From NCBI RefSeq assembly GCF_003334385.1, contig NZ_QOWN01000219.1: a stretch of DNA of 255 nucleotides; one strand, written 5' to 3'. The translations under genes were made by a program, and so were the position numbers. A model generated the notes under the pieces. The model did not search any database, was not told the origin of the DNA, and saw nothing but the letters and a program-made list of their open reading frames with translations. The stretch comes from Escherichia coli (GTDB taxonomy: Bacteria; Pseudomonadota; Gammaproteobacteria; Enterobacterales; Enterobacteriaceae). Every line of letters begins with the position of its first letter. Positions within the stretch are counted from its first letter, which is position 1. Below, piece by piece: positions 1 through 255 of the stretch.

Positions 1-149
1 GCCGGATAATGTTCCAGGAATTGCCAGTGAAATTTTGCGCGGGCGCGACGTTCATCACCGGCTTCAATGGCAGTGGCTACAGCGACTGCACCTTCTTCCT
101 TTATTGCCTGTTCGTCCGGAATGGCGGCGCAAATAAAGACTTTACTCAT
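1..149 (-). CDS. 5' portion (49 codons, incomplete at window edge) of a protein-coding gene; product not recognised (hypothetical protein). N-terminus: MSKVFICAAIPDEQAIKEEGAVAVATAIEAGDERRARAKFHWQFLEHYP...
   Basis: Manual translation of the reverse complement: ATG at complement(147-149), open frame through position 3 with no stop (positions 2-1 begin the next codon). A GAGGT Shine-Dalgarno lies 8 nt upstream of the ATG. An in-frame TAA (complement of 156-158) three codons upstream rules out a longer N-terminal extension. Codon choice is mostly common enterobacterial-type codons (GCC, CCG, GAA, CAG, CGT, CGC), with one rare ATA. GC is about 52% in the ORF versus about 38% upstream. No transmembrane-length hydrophobic segment or lipobox, so probably cytoplasmic. 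Identity was not established; no search was possible. Confidence 0.75.
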   Translation of the reverse strand, partial: MSKVFICAAIPDEQAIKEEGAVAVATAIEAGDERRARAKFHWQFLEHYP

Positions 150-157
150 TTTGTTTT

Positions 158-162
158 ACCTC
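158..162 (-). promoter_or_regulatory. Shine-Dalgarno / ribosome-binding site (GAGGT) for the minus-strand CDS
   Basis: The + strand reads ACCTC at 158-162, which is GAGGT on the minus strand. It is followed by an 8-nt A-rich spacer (AAAACAAA) and then the ATG at complement(147-149). This is a canonical match to the anti-SD core with canonical spacing. Confidence 0.7.
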
Positions 163-190
163 ATTACAGATTTAAGGGTGAACAAATCCC

Positions 191-204
191 TGCCATTGCT
201 GGCA
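191..204. repeat. Perfect 5-bp inverted repeat TGCCA-N4-TGGCA (spacer TTGC on + strand); candidate operator or short hairpin, function unknown
   Basis: Read directly from the sequence: 191-195 TGCCA and 200-204 TGGCA are exact reverse complements. The repeat does not extend (190 C against 205 T). Its centre lies about 48 bp upstream of the minus-strand start codon. The confidence is for the repeat existing as a sequence feature, not for any function. Confidence 0.5.
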
Positions 205-255
205 TATAAGAATGAAACCGGATATTTATTACGGAACTGTTTTAAAGACCTGCCG

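Follow-up and report, generated by a model that had tools for sequence, protein, structure and literature searches.

Start of an 823-residue YdfE-family exonuclease gene in prophage DNA of Escherichia coli

Genes at the locus and the coding strand

The analyzed DNA, a stretch of 255 nucleotides hereafter called the window, is 100% identical to lambda-like prophage DNA of Escherichia coli. Both genes that reach into it lie on the minus strand. Positions 242..255 contain the last four codons of ydfD, the first of them cut by the window edge, and the stop codon TAA (244..242). The respective CDS, WP_001090200.1, ends at position 8242 of locus L001, which corresponds to window position 242. In the 100%-identical copy, RefSeq lists ydfD as a gene of 63 amino acids with a DUF1482 domain, while the annotation of K-12 calls ydfD a 'lysis protein'. 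The stop codon is followed by an AT-rich spacer of 92 nt (150..241, 36% GC) and by the first 49 codons and two further bases of an 823-aa exonuclease gene (1..149, minus strand). This gene is an intact homologue of ydfE, and its part within the window encodes the predicted β1-α-β2-α segment of the YdfE_N domain.

The window is widespread. It was matched in 3,987 of 5,426 complete genomes (approximately 74%) at 7,018 places, with a maximum of seven places per genome, and in 17 phage records, among them those of mEp460_ev081, HannyBb, Tritos and PPompW/Stx2a phages. One carrier of a copy that is 100% identical to the window is strain ABU 83972. The gene order repressor … ydfA-ydfB-ydfC … dicB–ydfD–exonuclease–xis–int was observed in all ten loci compared, among them that of phage mEp460_ev081, and the succession dicB–ydfD–ydfE–xis–int agrees with membership in the YdfE family. 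In these operons, xis and then int follow directly after the exonuclease gene. No annealase (bet/recT/erf) and no gam is named among the annotated genes of the early-left operons of L001 (4257-11011), L002 and L004-L008, nor was a RecT-type annealase found next to the exonuclease gene in the loci compared. Two particularities of single loci may be mentioned here. In locus L009, an IS1 element is located where ydfD would be, and in the assembly NZ_CP124741.1 of EDL933, the prophage region has been placed on a 286-kb 'plasmid unnamed2', which is probably an oddity of assembly or annotation. It is highly probable that the window comes from a Qin-like lambdoid prophage of E. coli and represents the junction of ydfD and ydfE in its dicB operon, an early-left operon under repressor control, of which the junction occupies the int-proximal far end; this estimate is meant for the explanation as a whole, including the protein mechanism discussed below.

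The initial annotation, made from the nucleotide sequence, had described a well-defined gene start on the minus strand, and all of its elements were recovered. The start codon ATG (147..149) is the annotated start in all eight intact copies compared. It is preceded by the Shine-Dalgarno sequence GAGGT (158..162, minus strand), which is invariant in all copies and lies 8 nt before the ATG (9 nt in some alleles), the spacer being AAAACAAA at 157..150. Across the start region, the minus strand reads ...AATGAGGTAAAACAAAATGAGTAAAGTC..., or, in the second form in which it was written out, …TGTAATGAGGTAAAACAAAATGAGTAAAGTC…. An in-frame TAA (156..158) two codons upstream of the ATG closes the frame (…VMR*NKMSK…), and between this stop codon and residue 49 there is no other in-frame ATG, GTG or TTG that could serve as a start. 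Downstream of the ATG, 49 codons without a stop (MSKVFICAAIPDEQAIKEEGAVAVATAIEAGDERRARAKFHWQFLEHYP) extend as far as window position 3. A stop codon shortly beyond the left edge of the window, named beforehand as a finding that would cast doubt on the gene, does not exist, since in a 100%-identical genomic copy the frame runs over 823 codons and the RefSeq CDS WP_000048416.1 ("exonuclease") begins at exactly window position 149. The conserved first β-strand of the product starts at residue 3, and in viral contigs the GAGGT motif also occurs upstream of three different N-terminal variants. The upstream region had been given a GC content of 38%; the AT-rich character of this region is correct, but the exact figure is not, as 36% was measured for 150..241, compared to 52% for 1..149. 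We regard it as virtually certain that the ATG at position 149 is the true start of the 823-aa exonuclease gene.

The only complete open reading frame within the 255 nt is located on the opposite strand. This 66-codon ORF (9..209, plus strand) runs antisense to the exonuclease start and could in principle be the real gene, with the minus frame as its shadow. To decide between the strands, the window was aligned with nine to ten diverged copies (89-99% identity). The 36 variable columns within 1..149 are distributed 3/6/27 over codon positions 1, 2 and 3 of the minus frame (binomial p=3.8e-7, chi-square p=6.5e-7), a substitution pattern that picks the minus frame as the coding one. For the plus-strand ORF, the variable sites fall 25/5/3 on the three codon positions. 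Compared to the most diverged copies, 13 synonymous and three to five non-synonymous codon changes were counted in the minus frame, whereas one or two synonymous and 15 non-synonymous changes were counted in the plus frame. In addition, the ATG of the plus-strand ORF is changed to TTG in three of the nine diverged copies, and its frame is shifted by an indel of one nucleotide close to position 157, which alters its 3′ part. As the ORF loses its start codon and is frameshifted in relatives, it has to be regarded as an antisense shadow, as had been supposed. It has never been annotated as a plus-strand gene in 3,997 records, and the frame opposite to it is the 823-codon ORF with its strong family matches. 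Hardly any credence is therefore left for the plus-strand ORF as a gene; this candidate was rejected on the basis of the substitution pattern. Judged from the aligned copies, the exonuclease gene has evolved under purifying selection.

The ydfD–exonuclease spacer and its conserved leader core

The spacer is less variable than the silent positions of the adjacent coding region. Only nine of its 92 columns vary, compared to 27 of 50 third codon positions. Its most conserved part is a 48-nt leader core (158..205, minus strand), which reads ATGCCAGCAATGGCAGGGATTTGTTCACCCTTAAATCTGTAATGAGGT in mRNA sense and includes the Shine-Dalgarno sequence. This core is 100% identical in L011 (3001-3048) and L013 (3001-3048), although the CDS located downstream of it in these two loci are unrelated to the exonuclease gene (42-44% DNA identity). 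In L011 and L012, the 36 nt upstream of the leader (206-241) are unrelated too (25-28% identity). In E. coli, 2,237 genomes contain the 48-mer, with 3,937 occurrences in total. Its Shine-Dalgarno-proximal 18 nt (TTWAATCTGNNNTGAGGT) precede three unrelated N-terminal variants in the viral contigs L014-L133 and in L010 (approximately 8390-8410), namely those beginning with MSKVFICAAIP…, with MSTDK(E/Q)… and, in Rac RecE, with MSTKPLFLLRK….

Within the leader, a hairpin UGCCA-GCAA-UGGCA is followed by GGGAUUUGUU (191..204, minus strand). It resembles a terminator weakly and is a candidate only; in the terminator scan of the window it was the single site, a weak one, compared to 0.3 sites expected. 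A scan for sigma-70 promoters gave no site, the predicted fold of the leader RNA is no more stable than that of shuffled sequences (z=+0.76), and a search of the window against Rfam did not reveal a match at E≤1. The sole stem variant, UGUCA, keeps the pairing by a G·U wobble, and a double compensatory change was not seen. Covariation in the leader is uninformative because this single wobble-compatible change is all that was observed. The 48-nt leader may be a mosaic joint, a conserved leader for translation initiation or a weak terminator. The spacer also contains a small upstream ORF of 13 codons (MPAMAGICSPLNL*; 207..166, minus strand). It has no Shine-Dalgarno sequence and is probably not translated; in K-12-type copies its TAA is changed to TCA, by which the ORF is one codon longer.

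Domains of the exonuclease and relatives of its N-terminal module

The initial annotation could not recognize a product from the 49 residues encoded by the window. The full protein, however, is readily recognized as a YdfE-family prophage exonuclease. The profile PHROG 2082 ("exonuclease") matches residues 1-823 with its positions 1-823 of 823 (1871 bits), phrog_31653 covers residues 1-81 and phrog_5943 covers residues 1-257. The Pfam domain Rv2179c-like 3'-5' exoribonuclease (PF16473) was detected at residues 642-813 (model 2-177/177, E=5.2e-67). The Pfam domains YdfE_N (PF27430) and YdfE_C (PF27432) were taken from precomputed matches on the 98%-identical 823-aa protein P0121, which carries the Rv2179c-like domain as well, and on approximately 100 close homologues, rather than from the exact protein of the window. 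Homologues lacking the first 90 residues or so also lack PF27430.

According to this layout, residues 1 to approximately 95 constitute YdfE_N and the helical region from approximately 105 to 340 YdfE_C, of which the part from approximately 245 onwards is common to Rac RecE. Residues from approximately 345 to 640 form a linker of low complexity and acidic composition (D+E account for 20% of residues 346-640). In the L001 protein, a CxxC-x10-CxxC motif (CTACGQTGGGNCPDCG, residues 551-566) is located within this linker. It is shared with Rac RecE (approximately 519-534) and is possibly a zinc ribbon. The L005 protein, at 811 aa, lacks 12 residues of the central region. At the C-terminus, residues 642-813 form a DEDDh domain of the Rv2179c/DexA-like type, in which D646 and E648 (MIDLETMG), D746 (GANFD), H796 and D801 (HNALDDA) do not vary among eight alleles. 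From the general DEDDh pattern, these five residues would be the catalytic ones. Residue 800, just before the invariant D801, varies (LDDA, LHDA or LNDA; L004 and L005 proteins).

In a sequence search of the PDB with the full protein, the DEDD domain gave the only matches, 8kel and 8ken, the former being a 227-aa 'exodeoxyribonuclease' (E=1e-6), and nothing was found for the N-terminus. With the Rv2179c-like or T4 DexA-type DEDD exonucleases (PF16473; PDB 8kel), the protein has in common an end-to-end match of residues 642-813 and the presence of the DEDDh residues. What separates it from these enzymes is its size. They are small single-domain proteins, such as 8kel with its 227 aa, whereas the protein studied here carries an N-terminal extension of 640 residues, and it is a part of this extension, not of the nuclease, that is encoded by the window.

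Of 1.84 billion cluster representatives searched with the N-terminal module (residues 1-344), only 174 were related to it at E≤0.001; the majority are proteins of 600-900 aa with the module at their N-terminus. AlphaFold2, run on a 30-member alignment, predicted a structure with a mean pLDDT of 91.2. Its first domain comprises the elements β 3-11, α 13-19, β 24-30, α 33-47, β 56-62, β 83-86 and β 91-94, and its pLDDT values do not fall below 94 from β1 (3-11) through β3 (56-62) or below 91 within residues 1-90. Beyond this domain, a helical stretch (111-205), a linker of low confidence and a second helical domain (247-338) were predicted. It had been supposed that the N-terminus is a β-strand followed by an Ala/Glu-rich helix, as in small α/β folds. 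The model agrees with a strand and a helix in an alternating β/α domain, since residues 1–49 are predicted as β-α-β-α, but the Ala-rich segment AVAVATAIEA belongs to the second strand and not to the helix. A solved structure resembling the N-terminal domain was not found, and profile searches with the alignments A2 and A3 against the PDB gave nothing meaningful. The structural matches in AFDB50 were enterobacterial proteins called "exonuclease" or "exodeoxyribonuclease VIII", or uncharacterized ones, besides a few odd entries. Within residues 1-49, the conserved positions in 30 diverse members are P11, A30, A36 (invariant) and P49. Cys7, which had been pointed out as the only potentially functional residue, was rejected as such because its column is not conserved in the 30 diverse relatives (C10 G7 V6 A2 L2).

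The N-terminal module occurs in combination with different C-termini. Among 33 full-length relatives, three contain the DEDD domain and three the RecE-type domains Exonuc_VIII + DUF3799, while the C-terminal modules of most others are of the phrog_2489/7838 type and of the phrog_26058 type. Distant relatives (P0159, P0179, P0132 and others in alignment A3) mostly end in a conserved module whose motifs, MRATE.FGP.G.GWG and KKSLTDAIKKALS.LGFSAD, resemble Rad52. The Pfam model Rad52_Rad22 hit this module in eight of 14 members with E values of 0.01-0.1, and a comparison by hhalign with human RAD52, whose sequence was confirmed, aligned both motifs (probability 2.3%, E=0.02). At these values, the likeness to Rad52 is a weakly supported lead. 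The proteins carrying these motifs may be the 'RecE-2' proteins which, according to Zheng et al. (Genome Res 2025, PMC12315714), lack a nuclease domain. The same study describes RecE-related proteins without a nuclease fold and left lambdoid DnaQ-type nuclease genes as well as 'RecE-2' uncharacterized. These descriptions fit the exonuclease gene and its relatives, a comparison that is based on the wording of the study. Conversely, the nuclease part is also found behind another N-terminus. Locus L011 (556-2994) encodes an 812-aa '3'-5' exonuclease' that shares residues 245-823 with the protein studied here, but has different first 244 residues or so with RecE-like segments. Hence, N-terminal cassettes of at least two kinds can replace each other in this mosaic family, and the part encoded by the window belongs to one of them.

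Possible function of the exonuclease

On the basis of these data, we propose that the exonuclease would be translated from its strong Shine-Dalgarno sequence on a polycistronic dicB-ydfD-ydfE mRNA as soon as repression of the prophage ends. For K-12, it has been reported that the dicB promoter can transcribe dicB together with ydfD and the pseudogenes ydfE, insD7 and intQ (PMC11430063). The N-terminal module, including the 49 residues of the window, is presumably non-catalytic, as the conserved positions of its first domain (Ala, Pro, Gly and aromatics) are of structural types only. It could be a scaffold, or a targeting unit, by which the C-terminal nucleic-acid effector is delivered; this effector would be a 3'-5' exonuclease that attacks RNA or the ends of DNA while the phage develops. 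As to the substrate, the pointers differ, since the Pfam family has been named for an exoribonuclease and 8kel is called an 'exodeoxyribonuclease'. The chances of a scaffold-plus-exonuclease mechanism, deduced from domain content and conservation, appear to us evenly balanced. The protein could have a role in the processing of ends while the phage replicates or recombines, in the salvage of nucleic acids or in exclusion; a functional study of it was not found in the literature searched.

The best-studied protein at a comparable position is RecE (exonuclease VIII, 866 aa) of the Rac prophage, and some phage records label the gene product as 'exonuclease VIII'. If the gene were a recE orthologue, it would encode a 5'-3' dsDNA exonuclease partnering a RecT annealase. 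Both genes occupy the same place in the early-left operon near xis and int, a similar Shine-Dalgarno-proximal leader precedes them, and both products are large, with an N-terminal part of RecE that a review calls a "domain of unknown function" (PMC11611040). By BLASTP, however, the similarity is confined to residues 262-625, with 60% identity over 451-625 and a weaker one over 262-340, while the first 244 residues or so, including all those encoded by the window, are unrelated. The partial match to the NCBIfam equivalog for exonuclease VIII (NF007259 / PRK09709), in which only residues 447-625 align well, reached 279 bits and stayed far below the cutoff of 1269. The catalytic domains also differ. 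RecE possesses a PD-(D/E)XK domain acting 5'-3', but neither Exonuc_VIII nor DUF3799 was matched in the 823-aa protein, which contains a domain of the DEDDh 3'-5' type instead. Moreover, Rac has an adjacent recT, whereas the exonuclease gene has no recT, bet or erf next to it and is directly followed by xis. Orthology to RecE is for these reasons very improbable, and a YdfE-family exonuclease of the DEDDh type remains the preferred assignment.

The counterpart in K-12, ydfE (b1577) of the Qin prophage, is the same gene. The ydfD-ydfE junction of K-12 and the window share 92% DNA identity, the position after dicB-ydfD is the same, and YdfE_N/YdfE_C and PHROG 2082 are features of the intact form. 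By contrast, IS2 has truncated ydfE in K-12 to a pseudogene (L003 10079-10999), while the intact 823-aa form, to which the copy in the window belongs, has the C-terminal exonuclease domain. A second, independent inactivation is the frameshift in PPompW phages (L012 682-3149). It can be concluded from such frequent inactivation that the gene is dispensable for the host and for at least some phages. Together with its location in many defective prophages, this might even suggest a functionless relic whose start signals have merely been inherited. Such a view is difficult to reconcile with the full-length ORFs of 811-823 aa in all eight diverged chromosomal and phage copies retrieved by similarity to the window, with the strong excess of synonymous over non-synonymous changes, with the invariant catalytic residues and with the presence of the gene in the apparently complete phages mEp460_ev081, HannyBb and Tritos; we give it only a slight chance. 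That many prophages which are otherwise cryptic have kept the gene intact, with purifying selection acting on it, could rather be taken as a sign of a defence or exclusion factor. As such, the DEDDh exonuclease with its auxiliary domain would degrade the nucleic acid of superinfecting phages in a way similar to the ISG20-like 'TONDO' proteins. A 2026 preprint (PMC13344964) reports that prophage DEDDh exonucleases of another clade, with uncharacterized auxiliary domains, defend against RNA phages, and the title of PMC6832061 states protection against phage by the neighboring dicB. However, the TONDO set comprises ISG20-like proteins of <500 aa from a DEDDh clade other than the Rv2179c-like one, no defence model of PADLOC matches (the exonuclease, YdfD and DicB hit no family of PADLOC-DB), and the gene lies in a repressed early-left operon and should consequently be silent in a stable lysogen. 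A function in defence is for the present an improbable explanation, albeit less so than a relic or a RecE orthologue. Preference is given to an exonuclease active in phage development with a non-catalytic N-terminal module.

For annotation, the value of these data is small. The start of the gene and its family are already known and can be found in RefSeq, PHROGs and Pfam; the present analysis confirms a correct call and dismisses the antisense ORF. On the other hand, the exonuclease gene is among the most widespread prophage genes of E. coli and adjoins the studied toxicity genes dicB and ydfD. Its N-terminal module raises a more general question. It is conceivable, though at present rather doubtful, that YdfE_N/YdfE_C is an interchangeable 'adaptor' cassette of mosaic proteins encoded in lambdoid early-left operons. 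The module is combined with at least four C-terminal effectors (DEDDh, RecE-type PD-(D/E)XK, the phrog_26058 type and one that contains the Rad52-like motifs), the DEDDh effector in turn with at least two unrelated N-terminal modules, and all of them stand behind the invariant 48-nt leader. This leader might work as an RNA element, or it might be a joint at which recombination, and with it the swaps, is favored. If this is true, the adaptor cassette would be a targeting device shared by several phage recombination enzymes, for instance one directed to a host replication or repair factor. The N-terminal function of RecE-like proteins has long been a blank, and the swapping of modules would provide a concrete handle on a common binding partner.
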